Source: Nitrospirota bacterium (lineage in GTDB: Bacteria > Nitrospirota > UBA9217). Taken from it: 64,000 nt of DNA. Shown piece by piece: positions 4,744 through 57,608 of this stretch (position 1 is its first letter; each line of letters starts with the position of its first letter). The stretch lies in assembly GCA_963818475.1 (NCBI GenBank), contig CAWFSF010000006.1, positions 1,760,001-1,824,000 of the forward strand. The letters run 5' to 3'. The notes below the pieces were generated by a model that made no database searches, was not told where the DNA came from, and saw only the letters and a list, made by a program, of their open reading frames with translations. A program made the translations under genes and the position numbers.

Positions 4744-4860
4744 TTGCCACGAAGTCACGAAGACACAAAGAAAATCCGGGGTATATTCTTCATGAAGTAC
4801 CTGACTTGACGATTTATTCTTGTCACTGATTTACTTCGTGCCTTAGTGCCTTCGTGGCAA
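4744..4860. repeat. Gene-less inverted repeat with 3x8-nt periodic arms
   Basis: ttgccacgaagtcacgaagacacaaag ... cttcgtgccttagtgccttcgtggcaa. Confidence 0.75.
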
Positions 4861-37292: not shown

Positions 37293-37384
37293 GCCGAGTC
37301 GTTTAAGCAATGAACGTTTTCAGCCTTTCTCCGTGTCTCCGTGCCTCCGTGGTGAAAAAGCCTTGCCGTTGCCCTACAATTCTT

Positions 37385-37421: not shown

Positions 37422-38423
37422 ATGAACACTAAGATCGCAGTGATCGGCGCAGGCGCCTGGGGCACTGCCCTGGCAATGCTTTTGGCTGACAAAGGGCACG
37501 ACGTAACCCTCTGGATGTACGAGAAGGACCTTGCCGAGGAGACAAGCAGAACGCGCGAGAACCGCGTGTATCTCCCGGGGTTTACCCTGCCGGCTTCCCT
37601 TAAGATAACCTCATCGCTTGAATCGGCGGTCAAGGATATGCCGGTCATCCTGTCCGTCGTCCCCTCGCACACCGTGCGCGCGGTGGCCAGACAGTTCGCG
37701 ACTTTTCTTGCCAAAGACGCCATCATCATCAGCGCTTCCAAAGGCATCGAGATCGAGACGCTCATGCCGTTGTCGGAAGTCTTCAAGGACGTCCTGGCCC
37801 CGCACCACCACAATAATCTCTGCTTCCTCTCCGGCCCGAGCTTCGCCAAGGAAGTAGCGCAAAAGATGCCGACCGCTGTCGCCCTTGCCTCCTATGACAC
37901 AGTTGTGGGGATAAAAGCACAGGCGATCTTCAGCAACTCTTATTTCCGCGTATATACCAACACGGACGTCATCGGCGTGGAGCTTGCCGGCTCGCTCAAG
38001 AACGTGATCGCCATCGCAGCCGGCTTGCTCGAAGGGCTGGGCTACGGGTACAACACCATGGCCGCGCTGCTCACGCGAGGGCTCGCGGAAATGGCACGGC
38101 TTGGTGCTGCCATGGGCGGCAGTATCCAGACGTTCTCGGGACTCGCCGGTATGGGGGACCTCGTACTGACCTGCACCGGAGGTTTATCGCGGAACCGCAC
38201 GCTCGGCGTCCGGCTCGGCAAGGGCGAGAAACTGGACGACATCATGAAGGGCACAAAGACTGTTGCCGAAGGCGTAAAGACCGCCAAAGCAGCGCGCGAG
38301 CTTGCGGCGAAATACCACATGCACATGCCGATCGTAGAGCAGGTCTATCGCATTCTCTACGAGGGCAAGGACCCGGGTCTGGCGCTCAAGGACCTAATGG
38401 CCAGGGACCTTAAGGCGGAGTGA
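37422..38423 (+). CDS. gpsA: NAD(P)H glycerol-3-phosphate dehydrogenase
   Basis: GAGAWGTALA; LSGPSFA; KNVIAIA; GDLVLTC..SRNR. Confidence 0.96.
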   Translation: MNTKIAVIGAGAWGTALAMLLADKGHDVTLWMYEKDLAEETSRTRENRVYLPGFTLPASLKITSSLESAVKDMPVILSVVPSHTVRAVARQFATFLAKDAIIISASKGIEIETLMPLSEVFKDVLAPHHHNNLCFLSGPSFAKEVAQKMPTAVALASYDTVVGIKAQAIFSNSYFRVYTNTDVIGVELAGSLKNVIAIAAGLLEGLGYGYNTMAALLTRGLAEMARLGAAMGGSIQTFSGLAGMGDLVLTCTGGLSRNRTLGVRLGKGEKLDDIMKGTKTVAEGVKTAKAARELAAKYHMHMPIVEQVYRILYEGKDPGLALKDLMARDLKAE

Positions 38424-38450
38424 TCAATACAACATCACGCCTGCGACCCT

Positions 38451-39209
38451 ATGAATAAATCAGACCTCACAAAACTCCTCGAAAGCGTACGCGCGGGCAA
38501 GACCGGCGTGGAAACTGCGCTCAACCGGCTCAAGGACCTGCCGTTTGAGGATGTTGCCTATGCCCACATCGACCACCACCGTCATCTGCGCCACGGCATG
38601 CCCGAGGTGATCTACTGCGAAGGCAAGACGCTCGAGCAGGTCGTCGGGATCACGAAGCGCATGCTCAAGGTTGGAAGCGATATCCTGGCAACACGCGCAT
38701 CGGAAGCAGTGTTTAAAGCGATCAAAAAACTGGACCGCCGGGCAATCTATCACAAAGCGTCCCGTGCCATCGTTGTCCAGGATGCAAAGAAAAAGCTGAC
38801 TACCGGTGTCATTCTCGTTTTGACGGCAGGCACCTCGGACATTCCCGTTGCCGAGGAGGCCGCGGTCACCGCAGGAATGCTCGGCAGCAGCGTTCAGACC
38901 GTCTATGACGTGGGCGTTGCCGGCATCCACCGCATCCTGAGCAAAAAGGAAATCCTCGATTCCGCGCGGGTGATCGTTGTTGTGGCGGGCATGGACGGCG
39001 CCCTCCCGTCTGTCGTAGGCGGCCTGGTGGACAAACCCGTGATCGCCGTACCGACGAGCGTGGGCTATGGCGCAGGCTTTCAGGGCCTGGCTCCGCTGCT
39101 CACCATGCTGAACTCCTGCGCCGCAGGCGTGGCGGTGATGAACATCGACAACGGCTTCGGGGCAGGCGTAATGGCGCATAGGATCAACCTGTTGGGAGAG
39201 TCGAAATAA
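38451..39209 (+). CDS. larB: Nickel-pincer cofactor biosynthesis protein LarB
   Basis: AGTSDIPVAEEA; DVGVAGIHR; AVPTSVGYGA; NIDNGFGAG. Confidence 0.93.
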   Translation: MNKSDLTKLLESVRAGKTGVETALNRLKDLPFEDVAYAHIDHHRHLRHGMPEVIYCEGKTLEQVVGITKRMLKVGSDILATRASEAVFKAIKKLDRRAIYHKASRAIVVQDAKKKLTTGVILVLTAGTSDIPVAEEAAVTAGMLGSSVQTVYDVGVAGIHRILSKKEILDSARVIVVVAGMDGALPSVVGGLVDKPVIAVPTSVGYGAGFQGLAPLLTMLNSCAAGVAVMNIDNGFGAGVMAHRINLLGESK

Positions 39210-39220
39210 ACACCTTTTTC

Positions 39221-39349
39221 TCTCGCAAAGGCGCAAAGGTCGCCAAGAAGGTCAAAAACAAAAAGCATTAAGCGTTGTCTTAATAAAAAACATCGTACTC
39301 AGGTTTTTATACCTTAGATTTCCTTTGCGTACTTTGCGCCTTTGCGAGA
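39221..39349. repeat. Gene-less copy of GxxExxY-associated inverted repeat, family A
   Basis: tctcgcaaaggcgcaaaggtcgccaagaa ... ttcctttgcgtactttgcgcctttgcgaga. Confidence 0.85.
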
Positions 39350-39401
39350 AACGCTTTTAATTTTGTTTTTTCGGTCTCAGACTTTTCCTCGCTAAAAAAT
39401 T

Positions 39402-40604
39402 ATGACTACAGCCTACTTCGACTGCTTTTCCGGCATATCCGGCGACATGACCCTCGGCGCTCTCGTGGATGCAGGCGTCAGCATCGATGCCCTGCGCGCA
39501 GAGCTTGCGAAATTGAACCTGCCCGGTTACGAGATCACGGCAGAGAAGGTGATGCGCTCCGGCATCTCTGCAACAAAGGTGCATGTCAGGCTTGATGCTA
39601 AACCTCAACCCGCGCGCCACCTCGCGGACATCGGTCAGATCATCGAAGACTCAGAACTGTCCACATCGATCAAACAAAAGAGCATCAGGATATTCGAACG
39701 TTTGGCCCAAGCCGAAGCCAAAGTTCACGGCACAACGCCTGACAAGGTCCACTTTCACGAGGTCGGCGCGGTTGACGCCATCGTCGACATTGTGGGCTCG
39801 ATCATCGGGCTAGACTTGCTCGGGATCACGACCATTGCCGGCTCTGCCGTAAACCTTGGCTCCGGTTCGATCAAAACAGCACACGGCGTACTCCCGGTCC
39901 CTGCGCCAGCCACGGCGGAACTGCTCAAGGGCATCCCCTCCTACGGGTCATCAGTGCCCTTTGAGCTCACCACGCCGACCGGAGCGGTCATCCTGAGCAC
40001 CTTAAGCTCATCTTTCGGCCCCATGCCGCAGATGAACGTGTCACGGACAGGACACGGAGCCGGGAACAAGGAAATTCCGGGCCAGCCGAACGTGCTCCGG
40101 CTCATGATCGGCGAACCTGCTTCAGCCTATGACGAGGACAAATCTGTCGTCATTGAGACGAACATCGATGACATGAACCCGCAGCTCTATGAGCATGTTA
40201 TCGACAAACTCCTGCAGCAGGGCGCCCACGACGCCTACCTCACGCCGATCATCATGAAAAAAGGGAGGCCGGCGATCCTTCTTTCAGTTCTGACGGATAA
40301 GATGAAGGAAAGCGCCATCCTTGAAACGATCTTCCGCGAGACCACCAGCATCGGCGTCCGGATCCAGGAAGTGGGCAGAAAGAAGCTGACCCGCGAGATA
40401 GAGCTCGTTGAAACGGCCTACGGAAAGGTCAGGGTCAAAGTGAGCAAGCGGGGAGAGGAAATACTCACGATTACCCCGGAGTATGAGGACTGCAAGAAGA
40501 TCGCGGAAGAGAAACATGTACCCTTGAAGCAAGTTATGGAAGAAGCGAAGGGTCTGTTTTCTCGCAAAGGCGCAAAGGTCGCAAAGGAAATCAAAGACAA
40601 ATGA
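39402..40604 (+). CDS. larC: Nickel insertion protein LarC
   Basis: DCFSGISGDM; VHFHEVGAVD; ETNIDD; MKKGRP; PEYEDC. Confidence 0.93.
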   Translation: MTTAYFDCFSGISGDMTLGALVDAGVSIDALRAELAKLNLPGYEITAEKVMRSGISATKVHVRLDAKPQPARHLADIGQIIEDSELSTSIKQKSIRIFERLAQAEAKVHGTTPDKVHFHEVGAVDAIVDIVGSIIGLDLLGITTIAGSAVNLGSGSIKTAHGVLPVPAPATAELLKGIPSYGSSVPFELTTPTGAVILSTLSSSFGPMPQMNVSRTGHGAGNKEIPGQPNVLRLMIGEPASAYDEDKSVVIETNIDDMNPQLYEHVIDKLLQQGAHDAYLTPIIMKKGRPAILLSVLTDKMKESAILETIFRETTSIGVRIQEVGRKKLTREIELVETAYGKVRVKVSKRGEEILTITPEYEDCKKIAEEKHVPLKQVMEEAKGLFSRKGAKVAKEIKDK

Positions 40605-41028
40605 CCGAGAATCAGCTGGCAAAAATCGTTGTGGATCTTTGCTTAAAAATACATAGGCTTCTCGGTCCAGGGTTGCTAGAATCAGTATATGAAGAGGCGC
40701 TGGCATATGAACTGAAAAAGCTCGGGATCCTGTTTGAACGGCAAATAGGAATCCCGGTCTCATATGAAGACATAAAGATGGACTTAGGATTTAGAGCGGA
40801 TTTAGCAATAGACAATAAGATAATCGTTGAGTTGAAATCCATTGAGAACATTTTACCTGTCCATAAGAAACAAGTCGTGACCTATTTAAAGTTAACTAAA
40901 ATGAGACTCGGACTTCTTGTCAATTTTAATGTCGAGTTGATCAAAGATGGTATCATTCGTATAGCCAATGGACTTTGATCTTAACTCAGGCCTACGCCTT
41001 CCTTTGCGACCTTTGCGCCTTTGCGAGA
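40560..41028. mobile_element. Putative GxxExxY element A: gene between perfect 30-bp inverted arms
   Basis: 40560-40589 tctcgcaaaggcgcaaaggtcgcaaaggaa is the exact reverse complement of 40999-41028; mobility is inferred. Confidence 0.6.
40601..40978 (+). CDS. GxxExxY protein (PD-(D/E)XK-like)
   Basis: GPGLLESVYE; RADL..IIVELKS; Q..TYLK; GLLVNF; AT-richer than neighbours. Confidence 0.92.
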   Translation: MTENQLAKIVVDLCLKIHRLLGPGLLESVYEEALAYELKKLGILFERQIGIPVSYEDIKMDLGFRADLAIDNKIIVELKSIENILPVHKKQVVTYLKLTKMRLGLLVNFNVELIKDGIIRIANGL

Positions 41029-41096
41029 GACGCCCTTGACTTGATAGTATCATTGCCTTATGACTTTTGAGCACTGCATCACATGAGAGATTAATT

Positions 41097-42809
41097 ATGA
41101 GAACTATCCGCATATCCATGGCACAGATCAATCCGATCGTCGGCGACCTCAAGGGCAACCGGGACAAGATCATCGACTACATCGGCCGCGCGAAAAAACT
41201 CGGTTCCGATATCGTCGCATTTCCCGAACTGGCGGTTACCGGTTATCCGCCCGAGGACCTGGTACTGAAACCACAATTCGTCAAAGACAATCTGCGCACG
41301 CTCAAGGAGATCGCACAGGCGGCCAAAGGGATCACGGCGATCGTCGGCTTTATTGACGGCAAAGACAAGGACCTGTATAACGCCGCCGCTATCCTGGACA
41401 GCGGGAAGCAGATCTACACCTACCGGAAGATTCTCCTGCCGAACTACGGCGTGTTCGACGAATACCGCTACTTCAAACCCGGCAACCGCTGCCATGTCAT
41501 CACGGTCAAAGGCGTTGCTGTTGGCGTGAATATCTGCGAAGACATCTGGTACGCCGAAGGGCCGACCTTTGTTCAGGCGCTTGCAGGCGCTGAAGTGATC
41601 GTGAACATCAACGCGTCGCCTTTTCATAAGGGAAAGGGAAAAGAACGGCGGGCCACGATCTCGGAACGGGCGCAGGAGAGCGGCGTCGTCGTTACCTACA
41701 CCAACACGGTTGGCGGTCAGGACGAACTGGTCTTTGACGGACAGAGCATGGTGATCGACCGGAACGGCAAATTGATCGCCGTCGGCAAACAATTCGAGGA
41801 AGAGCTGATGACCGTGGACATCAGCGTAGCAGGCGTAAAACCGTCGCTTCCCGAAGACCTGATCCAATATCAGGACCACATCGATTACGTTGTTATTTCC
41901 GAAAAGCCTGCAGGTAAAAAGAAATCGCTCCCACCACGACGGAAGAGCAAACCGCTCCCGGTCTGCGAAGAGGTGTATCATGCGCTGGTGCTCGGCACGC
42001 GGGATTACATGACCAAGAACGGCTTTAAGTCCGCGGTCGTCGGCCTCTCCGGCGGCATCGATTCGTCCCTGGTGGCAGCTGTTGCCGTTGCTGCCATCGG
42101 CAAAGAAAACGTGACCGGCGTTTTCATGCCGTCCCAGTATAGTTCGAACGAAAGCCGGGAGGATGCCTGCGATCTGGCGGAACGCCTCGGGATAAGCATA
42201 CTGGATATCCCGATCAAGCAGACCTTCGACGCCTATCTCAATACGCTCCGCCATACCTTTTCGAAAACAAGGACCGACGTGACCGAAGAGAACCTGCAGG
42301 CACGGATCAGGGGCAACACGCTCATGGCGCTTTCGAACAAGTTCGGCTGGCTGGTGCTCACGACCGGCAACAAGAGCGAGATGTCCACGGGCTATGCCAC
42401 CCTCTACGGAGACATGGCCGGCGGCTTTGCCGTTATCAAGGACGTGCCCAAGACCATGGTCTACGACGTCTGCAGATGCATTAATCGTCTTGCCAAAAAA
42501 ACGATCATCCCCAAACGCGTGCTGACCAAGGCCCCGACTGCCGAACTCCGCCCGAACCAGAAGGACAGCGATTCCCTGCCTGAGTACGAGGTGCTCGACC
42601 CGATCCTGAAAGCCTACGTCGAGGATGACCGGTCGTTCGATGAAATGCTCAAGATGGGCTTTGACAAAAAGACCGTGGAACGCGTGATCCGGCTCGTGGA
42701 TTCCAGCGAGTATAAGCGGAGACAATCGCCCCCGGGGATCAAGATCACGCCGAGGGGCCTGGGCAAGGATAGGCGATTTCCGATTACCAACCGATATAAG
42801 AGCTTTTAA
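41097..42809 (+). CDS. nadE: Glutamine-dependent NAD+ synthetase
   Basis: Nitrilase domain (FPEL..TGYPPEDL, ICEDIW) plus GLSGGIDS and TGNKSE. Confidence 0.95.
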   Translation: MRTIRISMAQINPIVGDLKGNRDKIIDYIGRAKKLGSDIVAFPELAVTGYPPEDLVLKPQFVKDNLRTLKEIAQAAKGITAIVGFIDGKDKDLYNAAAILDSGKQIYTYRKILLPNYGVFDEYRYFKPGNRCHVITVKGVAVGVNICEDIWYAEGPTFVQALAGAEVIVNINASPFHKGKGKERRATISERAQESGVVVTYTNTVGGQDELVFDGQSMVIDRNGKLIAVGKQFEEELMTVDISVAGVKPSLPEDLIQYQDHIDYVVISEKPAGKKKSLPPRRKSKPLPVCEEVYHALVLGTRDYMTKNGFKSAVVGLSGGIDSSLVAAVAVAAIGKENVTGVFMPSQYSSNESREDACDLAERLGISILDIPIKQTFDAYLNTLRHTFSKTRTDVTEENLQARIRGNTLMALSNKFGWLVLTTGNKSEMSTGYATLYGDMAGGFAVIKDVPKTMVYDVCRCINRLAKKTIIPKRVLTKAPTAELRPNQKDSDSLPEYEVLDPILKAYVEDDRSFDEMLKMGFDKKTVERVIRLVDSSEYKRRQSPPGIKITPRGLGKDRRFPITNRYKSF

Positions 42810-42815
42810 CTGTTT

Positions 42816-42981
42816 TCTCGCAGAGGCGCAGAGTATGGCTAAATTGGCCAAGATCATCTCTCGCAAAGTCCGCAAAGGTCGCAAAGGAAGGCTAAATTCT
42901 GAGTCTTAACAAGCAACACGTAATTGTTATTTGCAATTTGCTTTTGATCTACTCTGCGCACTTTGCGCCTTTGCGAGAGAT
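42816..42981. repeat. Gene-less family A inverted repeat with an extra left arm
   Basis: tctcgcagaggcgcagag; tctctcgcaaagtccgcaaaggtcgcaaagg ... ctctgcgcactttgcgcctttgcgagaga. Confidence 0.8.
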
Positions 42982-43017
42982 AATTTTTGATTATCTTTGG
43001 CCTCGCGAGTCGACTCT

Positions 43018-43866
43018 ATGTCAACAGGAACCCTCTACATAGTCGCCACACCCATCGGTAACCTTGAGGACATGACCCTCAGGGCTATCCGTGTGCTGAA
43101 GGAAGCGGACCTCATCGCTGCCGAGGACACGCGCCACACCCGGCACCTGCTCGACCGCTACCAGATCGACACGCAGCTCACCAGCTACCACGACCATAAC
43201 AAGGAAGAGAAAGCTCCGGTCCTTGTCGCCCGTCTTCTCGAAGGGAAAAGCGTGGCACTCGTGTCGGATGCGGGAACTCCCGGTATATCAGACCCTGGCT
43301 ACTTCCTTATCAACCTCGCCATTGATCAGAAGATACCCGTCGTCCCTATCCCCGGCGCAACTGCAGCCATTGCCGCCCTCTCGATCTCAGGCATGCCGAC
43401 CGACCGGTTCATTTTCGAAGGTTTTCTCCCTGCCAAGCACCTGGCCCGGCAGAAACGGCTTCAGGACCTGGTGAAAGAAGAACGCACCCTGATCTTCTAC
43501 GAAGCACCGCATAAGATCATTAAAGCAGTCGAGGACATGCTCGAAGTTCTCGGCGACCGCCATGCAGTCATCACCCGGGAACTGACGAAGATCCACGAGG
43601 AAGCCATCAGGGGAACCCTTTCCGAGATCCTCAAGCGCCTGAACGAGGGCTCGATCAAAGGCGAGTTCACCGTCATCGTGCACGGCGCGTCAGCAGAACC
43701 GCTGAAGCAGGATATCGATACCGGTGAATATCTTAAGAACCTGATGCTGCATCGGGGCCTGAGCAAGAAAGAAGCGATCGCTGCTACTGCGGAGGAGCTT
43801 GGGTTGCCGAAGAAGGAAGTGTATAAGGAAAGCTTGAAGATAGAGGATGATAGGAACCGCGAATGA
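43018..43866 (+). CDS. rsmI: 16S rRNA C1402 2'-O-methyltransferase
   Basis: LYIVATPIGNLED; AEDTR; VSDAGTPGISDPG; RELTKIHEE. Confidence 0.96.
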   Translation: MSTGTLYIVATPIGNLEDMTLRAIRVLKEADLIAAEDTRHTRHLLDRYQIDTQLTSYHDHNKEEKAPVLVARLLEGKSVALVSDAGTPGISDPGYFLINLAIDQKIPVVPIPGATAAIAALSISGMPTDRFIFEGFLPAKHLARQKRLQDLVKEERTLIFYEAPHKIIKAVEDMLEVLGDRHAVITRELTKIHEEAIRGTLSEILKRLNEGSIKGEFTVIVHGASAEPLKQDIDTGEYLKNLMLHRGLSKKEAIAATAEELGLPKKEVYKESLKIEDDRNRE

Positions 43867-44337
43867 ACGCTAACGAACACGAATTGATCTTGAAGGATGA
43901 AGTCTTTCAAATCGTGGGCGCGGCGATGGAAGTGTCTAATGAATTAGGGTGCGGTTTTCTTGAAGCGGTTTATCAGGAAGCCTTGGAGATCGAACTTGAT
44001 GAGCGAAAGATTCCTCATGTGCCCCAGAAGCGGATAGAGATCCCCTACAAAGGCAGGATATTGAAAAAAGAGTACAATGCGGACTTTTTGTGTTATGACC
44101 GGATCATGGTCGAGATCAAGGCCATCAAAGCGATCACGGGGATAGAAGAAGCTCAGATCCTGAATTACTTGAAGGCAACGAATCTTCCGCTTGGGCTGGT
44201 CGTCAATTTCGGTGCGCCTCAGCTTGAATGGAAACGCTATGCCAACACCAGGAGGAACCACTAATGAACACTAATGTACGCGAATTAAGAACAAAAACAA
44301 GGAAGTTATTAGCGTCCATTCGCGTTCATTCGCGGTT
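43855..44337. mobile_element. Putative GxxExxY element B: gene between 3x10-nt inverted arms
   Basis: Left arm aaccgcgaat gaacgctaac gaacacgaat (43855-84); second left arm 44256-85; right arm 44308-37 (25/30 to the first). Confidence 0.55.
43863..44264 (+). CDS. GxxExxY protein (PD-(D/E)XK-like)
   Basis: GCGFLEAVYQE; ADF..IMVEIKA; QILNYLK; GLVVNFG. Confidence 0.92.
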   Translation: MNANEHELILKDEVFQIVGAAMEVSNELGCGFLEAVYQEALEIELDERKIPHVPQKRIEIPYKGRILKKEYNADFLCYDRIMVEIKAIKAITGIEEAQILNYLKATNLPLGLVVNFGAPQLEWKRYANTRRNH

Positions 44338-44620
44338 GATCTCGGCTCTGTTGATCTGTGCATTGTTAACCACCGGCTGTGCAACACTCACTACCGCTAC
44401 GCACTTTACCCCAGAAAGCCCGATGATATATAGCGGAACCAGGCTTGACTTACATGCGAGCGCAAATCACGATGAGATACTCCGCGTTTACAGCGATAAG
44501 TATGGTGTAGAACCACCGGCCTATCCAAAATTAGATCTCCCCTTCAGCCTATTGTTGGATACGCTAATTCTTTTCCCTGTCGTATACCCTATTGCTCTGT
44601 ATCAAGCTGTTTTCGACTAA
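44264..44620 (+). CDS. YceK/YidQ-like lipoprotein
   Basis: TTGC lipobox; YSGTRLD; DLPFSLLLDTL. Confidence 0.7.
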   Translation: MNTNVRELRTKTRKLLASIRVHSRLISALLICALLTTGCATLTTATHFTPESPMIYSGTRLDLHASANHDEILRVYSDKYGVEPPAYPKLDLPFSLLLDTLILFPVVYPIALYQAVFD

Positions 44621-44641
44621 GAGTCGACTAACAACTTATAA

Positions 44642-44947
44642 TTATTTCTTTTCCGTCAGTGTGCCGTTTTCGGGATTATACTCGTAATTGTCACTCTTAA
44701 GGGTCAGTTTGCTGAAGGACGACAGTTCACTGAGGTCCGCGGGATATCTCCCGTTGGCGGCATTAAATTCCAGGATCGACTGCTGAACTTGCTGGACATT
44801 CACATCCTTATCGAGCTTTTTGGTGGTCTTATATGATTCTGTTAGCGTGTTCCCGTATTGCTGGACAGGGTTCTTTTCCTCTGAACACGATACCACGGCA
44901 CACAATAAAAGGAACAATCCAACACGCACAGTATTCATCAGTTTCAT
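44642..44947 (-). CDS. Hypothetical lipoprotein
   Basis: VVSC lipobox; GRYPADLSEL. Confidence 0.65.
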   Translation of the reverse strand: MKLMNTVRVGLFLLLCAVVSCSEEKNPVQQYGNTLTESYKTTKKLDKDVNVQQVQQSILEFNAANGRYPADLSELSSFSKLTLKSDNYEYNPENGTLTEKK

Positions 44948-45103
44948 CGTTTTTCCTGAGAGTTCTACAACAGTTTTTCAATTGACCCTGGTCGTCATAA
45001 TACTAGATTTCGTTTCACTGAGCAAGTCAGAATACCGTAGGCAAGTCGGGCAGAGTGAAAACCCCGACGAAATTATCCCAACCATCTAAACAAGAGGTTG
45101 AAT

Positions 45104-54638: not shown

Positions 54639-54719
54639 CCGCTGATCACGAAGATTTCACCGATAAAAAAACCTGTACTACTTTTCTTAAAAATCTGCGT
54701 TTATCTGCGAAATCTGCGG
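54639..54719. repeat. Gene-less inverted repeat with 3-unit periodic arms
   Basis: ccgctgatcacgaagatttcaccgat ... atctgcgtttatctgcgaaatctgcgg. Confidence 0.65.
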
Positions 54720-57549: not shown

Positions 57550-57608
57550 CGCAAAGGGCGCCAAAACGGAAAGATCCTTTCGATCTTTGCGTCCTGCGCG
57601 CCTTTGCG
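57550..57608. repeat. Degenerate family-A-like inverted repeat
   Basis: cgcaaagggcgccaaaacggaaagatc / gatctttgcgtcctgcgcgcctttgcg. Confidence 0.5.

Follow-up and report, generated by a model that had tools for sequence, protein, structure and literature searches.

The window analysed here, a 64,000-nt stretch of contig CAWFSF010000006.1 from a Nitrospirota bacterium, carries at the junction of larC and nadE a small palindromic element, in which two inverted arms enclose a short gene encoding a GxxExxY protein (Table 1). Profile identification assigns the neighbouring genes to LarB, LarC, NAD+ synthase and RsmI. There is good support for regarding this feature as a gene-bearing member of a large class of palindromic elements. 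Equally well supported is the general layout of the class: inverted arms, each usually made of two to four C-R-C-R-R-A-K heptamers spaced 8-10 nt apart, and, as cargo, a GxxExxY nuclease that retains an intact E...D...ExK signature.

A repeat search of the window recovers the arms as a perfect inverted repeat (30 nt, 100% complementary, 409 nt apart), for which the chance expectation is about 1e-10 (perfect 30-mer inverted repeat within 1.2 kb in a 64-kb window). Each arm contains three CGCAAAGG units, which start in the left arm at 40563, 40571 and 40580, and the tandem pattern CGCAAAGGNCGCAAAGG, with up to two mismatches allowed, is found 6 times in the window against 0.17 expected. This search and the profile matches given below bear out the preliminary description of the locus, which had reported a GxxExxY gene inside perfect 30-bp periodic inverted arms. 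The same description placed the unit between larC and nadE; the neighbours are right, but the left arm lies in the larC reading frame and is not intergenic. Indeed, the larC frame (39402-40604) crosses the left arm, and its final 14 codons consist of arm and loop sequence. The Pfam Ni_insertion match of LarC stops at residue 379 of 400, and in relatives without the element LarC ends 5-6 residues past a conserved F. As the larC stop and the cargo start overlap, translational coupling would be possible. The cargo open reading frame (ORF) has a G+C content of 38.6%, against 56.5% for larC and 56.1% for nadE. No target duplication was detected, as had been noted from the sequence beforehand: among 13 copies of this arm family, the longest direct repeats abutting both ends average 1.2 nt, against 1.6 nt for mismatched flanks.

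Table 1. Features of the larC-nadE element and of the other palindromic elements found near it in the window.
Feature	Position	Strand	Description
Left arm	40560..40589	no strand	TCT + three CGCAAAGG units (spacing 8, 9) + AA; within 3' end of larC frame
Right arm	40999..41028	no strand	Exact reverse complement of left arm
Element-derived larC end	40560..40604	+	Last 14 codons + stop; TGA overlaps cargo ATG (ATGA)
Cargo gene	40601..40978	+	125-aa GxxExxY protein, predicted PD-(D/E)XK fold; G+C 38.6%
Gene-less doublet, CGCAAAG family	39221..39349	no strand	larB-larC spacer; arms 39221-50 and 39320-49; loop 69 nt
Solitary left-arm remnant	42816..42833	no strand	CGCAGAG units; immediately 3' of nadE stop codon
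Gene-less doublet, CGCAAAG family	42859..42978	no strand	nadE-rsmI spacer; arms 42859-89 and 42949-78
Second gene-bearing element	43855..44337	+	Layout L - gene - L' - loop - R
Second element, left arm	43855-84		Units CGCGAAT/CGCTAAC/CACGAAT, spacing 10
Second element, GxxExxY ORF	43863-44264	+	Intact; start within arm; overlaps rsmI stop by ATGA
Second element, L'	44256-85		Direct copy of left arm
Second element, right arm	44308-37		

The cargo protein matches the profiles PF13366 PDDEXK_3 (E 7.5e-40, 136.4 bits, cut-off 22) and TIGR04256 GxxExxY (E 6.7e-41, 139.3 bits, cut-off 35), and residues G22, G24, L26, E27, Y30, D67, E77 and K79 are invariant in 40 aligned homologs. Its AlphaFold model (pLDDT 95.5) shows the order helix-helix-three strands-helix-strand, that is, a restriction-endonuclease-like alpha/beta fold, and the protein is predicted to be a nuclease. 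The top Foldseek matches in the PDB are all PD-(D/E)XK proteins, although weak ones (best 4ic1, the Cas4 protein SSO0001, E 3.6e-3, TM 0.51); others include alkaline and lambda exonucleases, Hjc, a splicing endonuclease, the R2 endonuclease and I-Bth0305I. The membership of GxxExxY proteins in the PD-(D/E)XK superfamily, as initially stated, is confirmed by profile scores above cut-off, by invariant catalytic residues and by the modelled fold. By sequence, a PDB search returned nothing meaningful (best E 0.41), PADLOC returned Cas4 alone (E 0.017) and PHROGs one Cas-associated family (E 0.0047), while a profile scan found no domain besides PF13366 in the protein and no known transposase. Like Cas4 and lambda-exonuclease-type nucleases, which provide its best fold matches, the protein possesses the common E-D-ExK core; unlike them, it is half their size and lacks any CRISPR context, and both these fold matches and the Cas4 profile match are weak.

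The family is very large: a family-wide profile search gave 40,897 cluster representatives at E <=0.001 and 19,933 at <=1e-10, among 1.84 billion. Sixteen of the 18 top representatives are proteins of 240-295 aa with two GxxExxY stretches, i.e. natural tandem fusions, which may hint at a dimer as the functional unit. The literature searched assigns no function to GxxExxY or PF13366, in agreement with what had been stated at the outset, and carries a domain label or 'Unknown' in the passages that mention it. In the same literature no publication was found that unites REPIN/RAYT systems (populations of repetitive extragenic palindromic, REP, doublets forming hairpins and their REP-associated tyrosine transposases), restriction endonuclease-like and four-helix-bundle proteins, and intervening sequences; descriptions of the families in databases may remark on flanking repeats.

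The arms were initially taken as belonging to the gene that they enclose. They are indeed real around this gene, but they are not private to it, since they also flank gene-less loops in the window and at many sites of the host genome (G000; 4.66 Mb, 91% complete). The 30-mer of the element occurs there 40 times at <=7 mismatches, and these occurrences form 13 convergent pairs with loops of 36-409 nt, of which the larC-nadE pair is the only one that holds a gene. A scan that does not rely on any motif retrieved 375 inverted repeats of >=20 nt within 1.2 kb, corresponding after merging to at least 106 distinct periodic-arm elements, 86 of them with loops of <=150 nt. This figure of 106 is a lower bound, because the periodicity filter used (>=0.7) excluded the element of the window itself, whose units are spaced by both 8 and 9. 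The genome contains 255 arms of at least three C-R-C-R-R-A-K units, against 2 for a reversed-motif control; most belong to doublets that lack a gene and follow closely on stop codons, and more than 12 unit types coexist in this one genome. According to a crude self-trained ORF caller, on which all these context statistics are based, 73 of the 86 short doublets are overlapped by called genes over less than 20% of their length, they lie at a median of 21 nt 3' of a stop codon, and only 2 of the 86 sit in spacers between divergent genes, which make up 450 of the 4059 spacers of the genome. The gene-less loops share a consensus of their own that differs from the gene-bearing loop, with the doublet at 39221-39349 as a possible exception.

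In the same genome, 13 PF13366 matches correspond to 11 GxxExxY loci, several of which are decayed by a stop, a frameshift or a truncation. Clear inverted arms of tandem units flank eight of the 11; of the others, one lacks arms and two are atypical. The units of those eight loci are locus-specific: CACGGAG, CACGGAT, CGCAAAG, CGCGAAT (two loci), CACGAAG (two loci) and CGCAGAG. Two further sites, C2:239460-239715 and C2:425532-425794, display periodic arms around loops of ~212 nt that carry a common repeat (in translation, ...RGAERR.NL.YQ...NCEIASL...) and look like the nesting of a different repeat family.

The association extends across phyla. A first survey examined the best 80 of at least 586 loci encoding homologs (45-60% protein identity) on one-genome-per-species contigs from Bacteroidota, Verrucomicrobiota, Planctomycetota, Cyanobacteria, Acidobacteriota, Proteobacteria, Chloroflexota, Nitrospirota and one Methanothrix bin. 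Among the 78 loci with enough flank (160 nt on each side), 56 have an inverted-repeat score of >=12 between their flanks, compared with 2 of 154 controls, which were shifted pseudo-genes in the same loci; at least two CRCRRAG units upstream together with at least two complements downstream occur in 44 of the 78 loci and in none of the 154 controls. The enrichment of inverted arms around GxxExxY genes that the preliminary description had proposed to look for is thus present. The arms most often contain three units (28/78), usually spaced 8-9 nt, and the commonest layout is L-gene-R (30/77). The upstream gene is on the same strand in 54 loci, on the opposite strand in 18 and unclear in 3 (n=75), a rough count based on long open frames only.

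A second survey addressed the relatives of the second GxxExxY gene of the window on metagenome contigs (best 80 of at least 550, 65 with enough flank). Their arms have a like build, with units ending in T: CGCAGAT(T), CACAGAT(T) and CGCGAAT. The unit changes with the protein subfamily: in subfamily 1, the relatives of the larC-nadE gene, G-ending units outnumber T-ending ones in 72 of 77 loci and the reverse occurs in none, whereas in subfamily 2, the relatives of the second gene, T-ending units prevail in 55 of 65 loci and the reverse occurs in one. Six columns of the protein alignment separate the two subfamilies, each subfamily being fixed for its own residue (P23/C, L25/F, S28/A, T94/N, L98/A and N110/G). 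Within the unit, positions C1, C3, A6 and K7 are kept across phyla and differ by protein subfamily.

The size of the repeat population was compared among related genomes. Tandem CGCAAAG dimers number 75 in the host genome, 24-101 (median 67.5) in the 10 genomes of the same family that encode a homolog of >=61% identity, 0-100 (median 9) in the 14 genomes of that family without such a homolog, and 0-1 in 16 genomes of other families. Close homologs located at other sites (in G021, G017 and G011, and a second copy in G016) have CGCAAAG-type arms too, and more distant homologs have CGCAGAG, CACGAAG, CACAGAG or CGCGGAG arms. Spacer variants have been amplified genome by genome. The variant CGCAAAG-G-CGCAAAG, which is that of the gene in the window, occurs 30 times in the host genome, 4 times each in G003 and G012, and 10 times each in G010 and G016; the variant CGCAAAG-C-CGCAAAG occurs 38 times in G010 but once in the host genome and 0, 7 and 3 times in G003, G012 and G016, respectively. 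A complete concerted change of unit type from one genome to another was considered and rejected: the five genomes checked all hold both CGCAAAG and CGCAGAG arrays, in differing proportions. The family is essentially chromosomal, with no tblastn match in 50,697 phage records and 8 matching plasmid records, all typed as non-mobilizable.

The history of the larC-nadE copy was reconstructed from 40 related genomes, in 20 of which the junction is readable. The GxxExxY gene and its arms are syntenic in seven of them, two from the same genus (G002 and G003) and five from other genera (G009, G010, G012, G016 and G019); the gene of G012 is broken up over two frames, and in G019 both arms consist of CGCAGAG units. 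The junction of the congener G005 is occupied by a gene-less doublet of another unit family (CGCAGAT), those of G011, G013, G014, G018 and G023 by other gene-less or nested periodic elements, and that of G021 by an unrelated ORF. The element is absent from the junctions of G006, G008, G015, G017, G020 and G024, and in G020 the anchors are just 8 nt apart. The comparison of junctions suggested from the start has thus revealed empty, gene-less and other-family-occupied sites, and wherever the gene is syntenic it has its arms. In the larB-larC and nadE-rsmI spacers of the relatives, occupancy is likewise conserved while the occupants change or are nested.

Six relatives encode orthologous proteins 64-80% identical to that of the window, and the genes have diverged by proportions of synonymous differences (pS) of 0.74-0.93, which are saturated, and of non-synonymous differences (pN) of 0.11-0.24. 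As pS is saturated, pN is low and the arms are kept, the gene and its arms must have been maintained over a long time, by selection or by continual homogenisation. The gene is both syntenic and under purifying selection. It is well supported that the element entered the last larC codons of an ancestor shared by several genera, and that its inheritance has been vertical from then on. A recent insertion is not supported for this copy, which is fixed and syntenic across genera, always with arms.

Two observations concern these spacers in relatives. In G009, four copies of the right arm follow the larC-nadE GxxExxY gene at ~100-nt intervals, in a spacer of 811 nt; this series corresponds to a tandem amplification of the right end of the element. 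The larB-larC spacer of G010 and G024 contains a decayed small ORF bounded by a different inverted repeat, which, judging from its motif, looks like a GIY-YIG nuclease. In G010 this ORF is itself interrupted by another repeat, and it may represent a third type of cargo in this kind of element.

Among known systems, the closest parallel is provided by REPIN-RAYT, in which REP doublets forming hairpins coexist with a single-copy RAYT (Bertels & Rainey 2011, PMC3116915). In both cases, as far as that account describes REPINs, extragenic inverted doublets are over-represented, with tens to hundreds of copies, variants are amplified within genomes, and several repeat families occur per genome, each accompanied by about one single-copy, conserved and vertically inherited gene flanked by its own repeats. 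Long vertical persistence of gene and repeats is likewise found at larC-nadE. The analogy with RAYT and REPs drawn in the preliminary description gains from these dispersed extragenic doublets, from the presence of roughly one gene per unit type, from vertical inheritance and purifying selection, and from the abundance of arms in genomes with a close homolog. It is incomplete, since the protein is here a 125-aa PD-(D/E)XK nuclease and there a Y1/HUH transposase, the arm is here made of about three direct heptamers and there of one imperfect palindrome, and the gene lies here inside a doublet, while the arms of the gene-less copies do not show compensatory pairing. The element is not a member of the REPIN-RAYT family, having no Y1 transposase, nor is it a 23S intervening sequence, since its cargo is different and it does not lie in rRNA. 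The way in which the unit code tracks the type of nuclease suggests a protein-repeat partnership that has not previously been described and that resembles the known REPIN-RAYT one. The likeness to miniature inverted-repeat transposable elements (MITEs) and insertion sequences, namely terminal inverted repeats and many gene-less copies per gene-bearing copy, is limited by the lack of target-site duplication and of any known transposase family, by a gene-bearing copy that is fixed and old, and by gene-less loops that, with the possible exception already mentioned, are not deletion derivatives of the gene-bearing loop.

With moderate confidence, we propose a REPIN-RAYT-like partnership, in which a fixed and selected GxxExxY nuclease recognises the heptamer arrays and maintains or spreads the gene-less doublets, with RNase III processing similar to that of intervening sequences as a likely consequence at the RNA level. 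The nuclease would be a sequence-specific partner of its own heptamers, G-ending units going with one subfamily and T-ending units with the other. It would bind the arrayed units and nick or cut DNA at the arms, and this cutting would maintain, homogenise or spread gene-less doublets in trans while the gene itself stays put, the single-copy RAYT acting on REPINs being the model for such action in trans. Upon transcription of the operon, the arms would pair into a predicted 30-bp duplex. As this stem is of the type that RNase III cuts in ORF-bearing 23S intervening sequences, the element probably splits the larC-nadE transcript. The passage of the larC frame across the left arm, up to its terminal ATGA, could open the stem and link the translation of the cargo to that of larC.

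Several points weigh against this proposal. The gene shows no sign of movement within the clade, and there is no target duplication. With the strict motif, the arm cluster is absent from 15 of 77 loci of the first survey and one-sided in 16 more. Three genomes have many CGCAAAG dimers but no close homolog (G001, 100 dimers in an assembly 65% complete; G004, 92 and 74%; G013, 49 and 85%). Furthermore, related genomes are not independent, so that the co-occurrence counts overstate the support and are suggestive only. The dominant spacer variant of G010 differs from that of its larC-nadE gene, which argues against a simple one-master model. Co-inheritance of gene and arms, without any recognition, could produce the link between subfamily and unit. 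The host genome also holds PF05635 genes, which encode four-helix-bundle proteins devoid of a nuclease fold, in elements of the same architecture built of other units (all five PF05635 genes above cut-off); the architecture therefore does not require the nuclease. The genome also contains 11 matches to the Y1 transposase domain (PF01797), whose products could in principle act in trans. Finally, of the partnership between protein and arms put forward beforehand, it is the association that is observed, whereas binding, cleavage and mobilisation, like RNA processing, are steps that we infer.

The first alternative, which appears unlikely, is an element that acts through RNA only: the arms would form a duplex cut by RNase III, the flanking messages would be separated and the mRNA of the cargo released or silenced, while the protein would not act on the arms and the element would spread by another route. 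Such an element would recall the 23S intervening sequence of Coxiella, in which a 28-bp terminal stem surrounds a S23p (PF05635) ORF preceded by three tandem heptamers, and in which, according to Warrier et al. 2016 (PMC4990558), RNase III cuts the middle of the stem and removes the ribosome-binding site, the mode of spread being described there as unknown. The two architectures share an ORF of ~120 aa within terminal inverted repeats, a stem of ~28-30 bp and three 5' tandem heptamers, a likeness that extends to the 23S intervening sequences of Leptospira. The present element differs in its location, in an mRNA spacer and gene end instead of helix 9, 25 or 45 of rRNA, and in its cargo, GxxExxY instead of the four-helix-bundle S23p. 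RNA folding predicts that the arms pair and that pairing reaches into the flanks (-173.1 kcal/mol, z -8.0), the host genome carries a RNase III gene, a search of the + strand from 39100 to 44400 gave no promoter-like or terminator-like site, and the elements fall within transcription units and seldom occupy divergent spacers.

Other observations weigh against this alternative. RNase III needs a duplex and not a conserved heptamer, whereas the four kept positions of the unit persist across phyla and change with the subfamily; the variation of the arms is concentrated in the spacers between units. In 57 survey loci with an arm score of >=12, mismatches between arms read on the sense strand comprise 38 G-U, 47 A-C and 68 other pairs, that is, no excess of wobble. 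Among 13 CGCAAAGG doublets, arms agree at 25.8 of 30 positions within an element and at 26.1 between elements (permutation p 0.94), that is, no compensation within elements. The orientation of doublets relative to the flanking genes, read from an asymmetric GACGC flank, shows no bias (A: ++ 7, -- 7; B: ++ 3, -- 6, +- 2, -+ 1). None of the 40 loci scanned among the 80 of the first survey had an rRNA or other Rfam match or lay within an rRNA gene. It is the unit rather than the pairing that is conserved, which argues for sequence recognition of the units besides any effect of the duplex in RNA. The looping-out of the gene at the RNA level, also considered in the preliminary description, thus retains the 23S precedent but finds no signal in the wobble, compensation and orientation tests. 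The idea that the purine-rich arm is always upstream was dropped as empty, an inverted repeat being identical on both strands.

More improbable still is a homing-type selfish gene, whose nuclease would cut gene-less doublets so that the gene is copied in by repair with the arms as homology, the doublets being spread by something else. The gene does sit exactly between the halves of a sequence that also exists without it, homing endonucleases with a PD-(D/E)XK fold are known (one of the fold matches is I-Bth0305I), and L-gene-L'-loop-R layouts are encountered in the second element of the window, in G012 and G019 and in 3 of 60 loci of the second survey. However, there is about one gene-bearing copy per unit family for tens of gene-less ones, the larC-nadE copy occupies a single site across genera, arms of 25-30 nt are short for recombinational repair, and the gene-less loops have a consensus of their own that is unlike the gene-bearing loop.

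It is very improbable that another enzyme moves the arms, for example one of the Y1-domain proteins mentioned above (IS200/RAYT-like), and that GxxExxY is passive cargo. Nine of these Y1 genes were inspected and none has CRCRRAK arm arrays, their 600-nt flanks containing 0-3 scattered unit matches; moreover, what cognate arms enclose, both here and in other phyla, is a GxxExxY gene. The Y1 matches mostly lie in open frames of 190-340 aa and form two or three paralog groups.

The least probable explanation, in which the arms are sites for a host chromosome-organising or global regulator protein near which small genes merely accumulate, follows the interpretation given to paired sites of Geobacter metallireducens, where one class, made of three TCTCCGTS[Y] repeats, complements CACGGAG(A) (Aklujkar et al. 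2009, PMC2700814). A conserved regulon does not fit the observations that one genome has more than 12 unit types, the unit type tracks the enclosed protein subfamily across phyla, unit variants are amplified genome by genome and one spacer holds different unit families in close relatives. Those Geobacter sites are made of 3-5 tandem 7-8-nt repeats on opposite strands, for which IHF/HU or unknown regulators have been proposed, and they represent the same kind of gene-less doublet, separated by a variable distance; they were described in a single genome, and the main text of that report links them neither to GxxExxY nor to four-helix-bundle proteins nor to other phyla, although its supplement may hold such neighbours (PMC2700814).

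The partnership between GxxExxY nucleases and heptamer arrays may be part of a broader picture, which is put forward tentatively and with less confidence than the partnership itself. There would be a second class of protein-repeat replicators, inherited vertically and spanning phyla, of which GxxExxY supplies the protein half. A minimal PD-(D/E)XK nuclease would read, in arrays of about three units, a 7-nt code that depends on the subfamily (C-R-C-R-R-A-G or C-R-C-R-R-A-T), and would copy, homogenise or replace palindromic doublets located at the ends of genes. PF05635 and perhaps small GIY-YIG proteins would be parallel partners with codes of their own, and rRNA intervening sequences would be a special case.

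The very large GxxExxY/PDDEXK_3 family gains a concrete and testable partner, a short DNA code that is found across phyla and switches with the subfamily. The results also connect ORF-bearing 23S intervening sequences, the paired tandem-repeat sites of Geobacter and REPIN-like sequence populations, which have so far stood apart. If a 7-nt code is truly read in arrays, the family would provide compact, sequence-specific nucleic-acid binders already diversified by nature. The arms also account for two recurrent annotation artefacts, namely odd N-terminal extensions of GxxExxY genes that are encoded by the repeats, and altered C-termini in host genes, of which larC is an example.

The five PF05635 genes of the host genome are located at C6:2338101-2338415, C3:7651-7962, C6:864517-864816, C6:1705765-1706049 and C6:1993680-1993967. 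Their flanks contain arrays of 7-8-nt units, namely ATTGCGG/ATTTCGG, GGTGAATG, AGTAGCA, GAAGTTT and AATTTCC. Several of these elements have the L-gene-L'-loop-R layout, and at least 18 gene-less doublets are built of the ATTGCGG type as well. The Avd protein of diversity-generating retroelements is grouped with PF05635.

In 38000-45000, Rfam yielded no family above threshold, rRNA included; the hairpin of the gene-less doublet upstream of larC (39218-39352) matched a plant microRNA precursor family below threshold (31 bits, cut-off 135), an artefact of its hairpin structure by which automatic annotation could be misled. Elsewhere in the window, further CACGAAG, CACGGAG and CGCAGAT arrays and a small CGCAAAGG hairpin occur at 4748-4770 (+), 37329-37351 (-), 54693-54718 (-) and 57550-57608.

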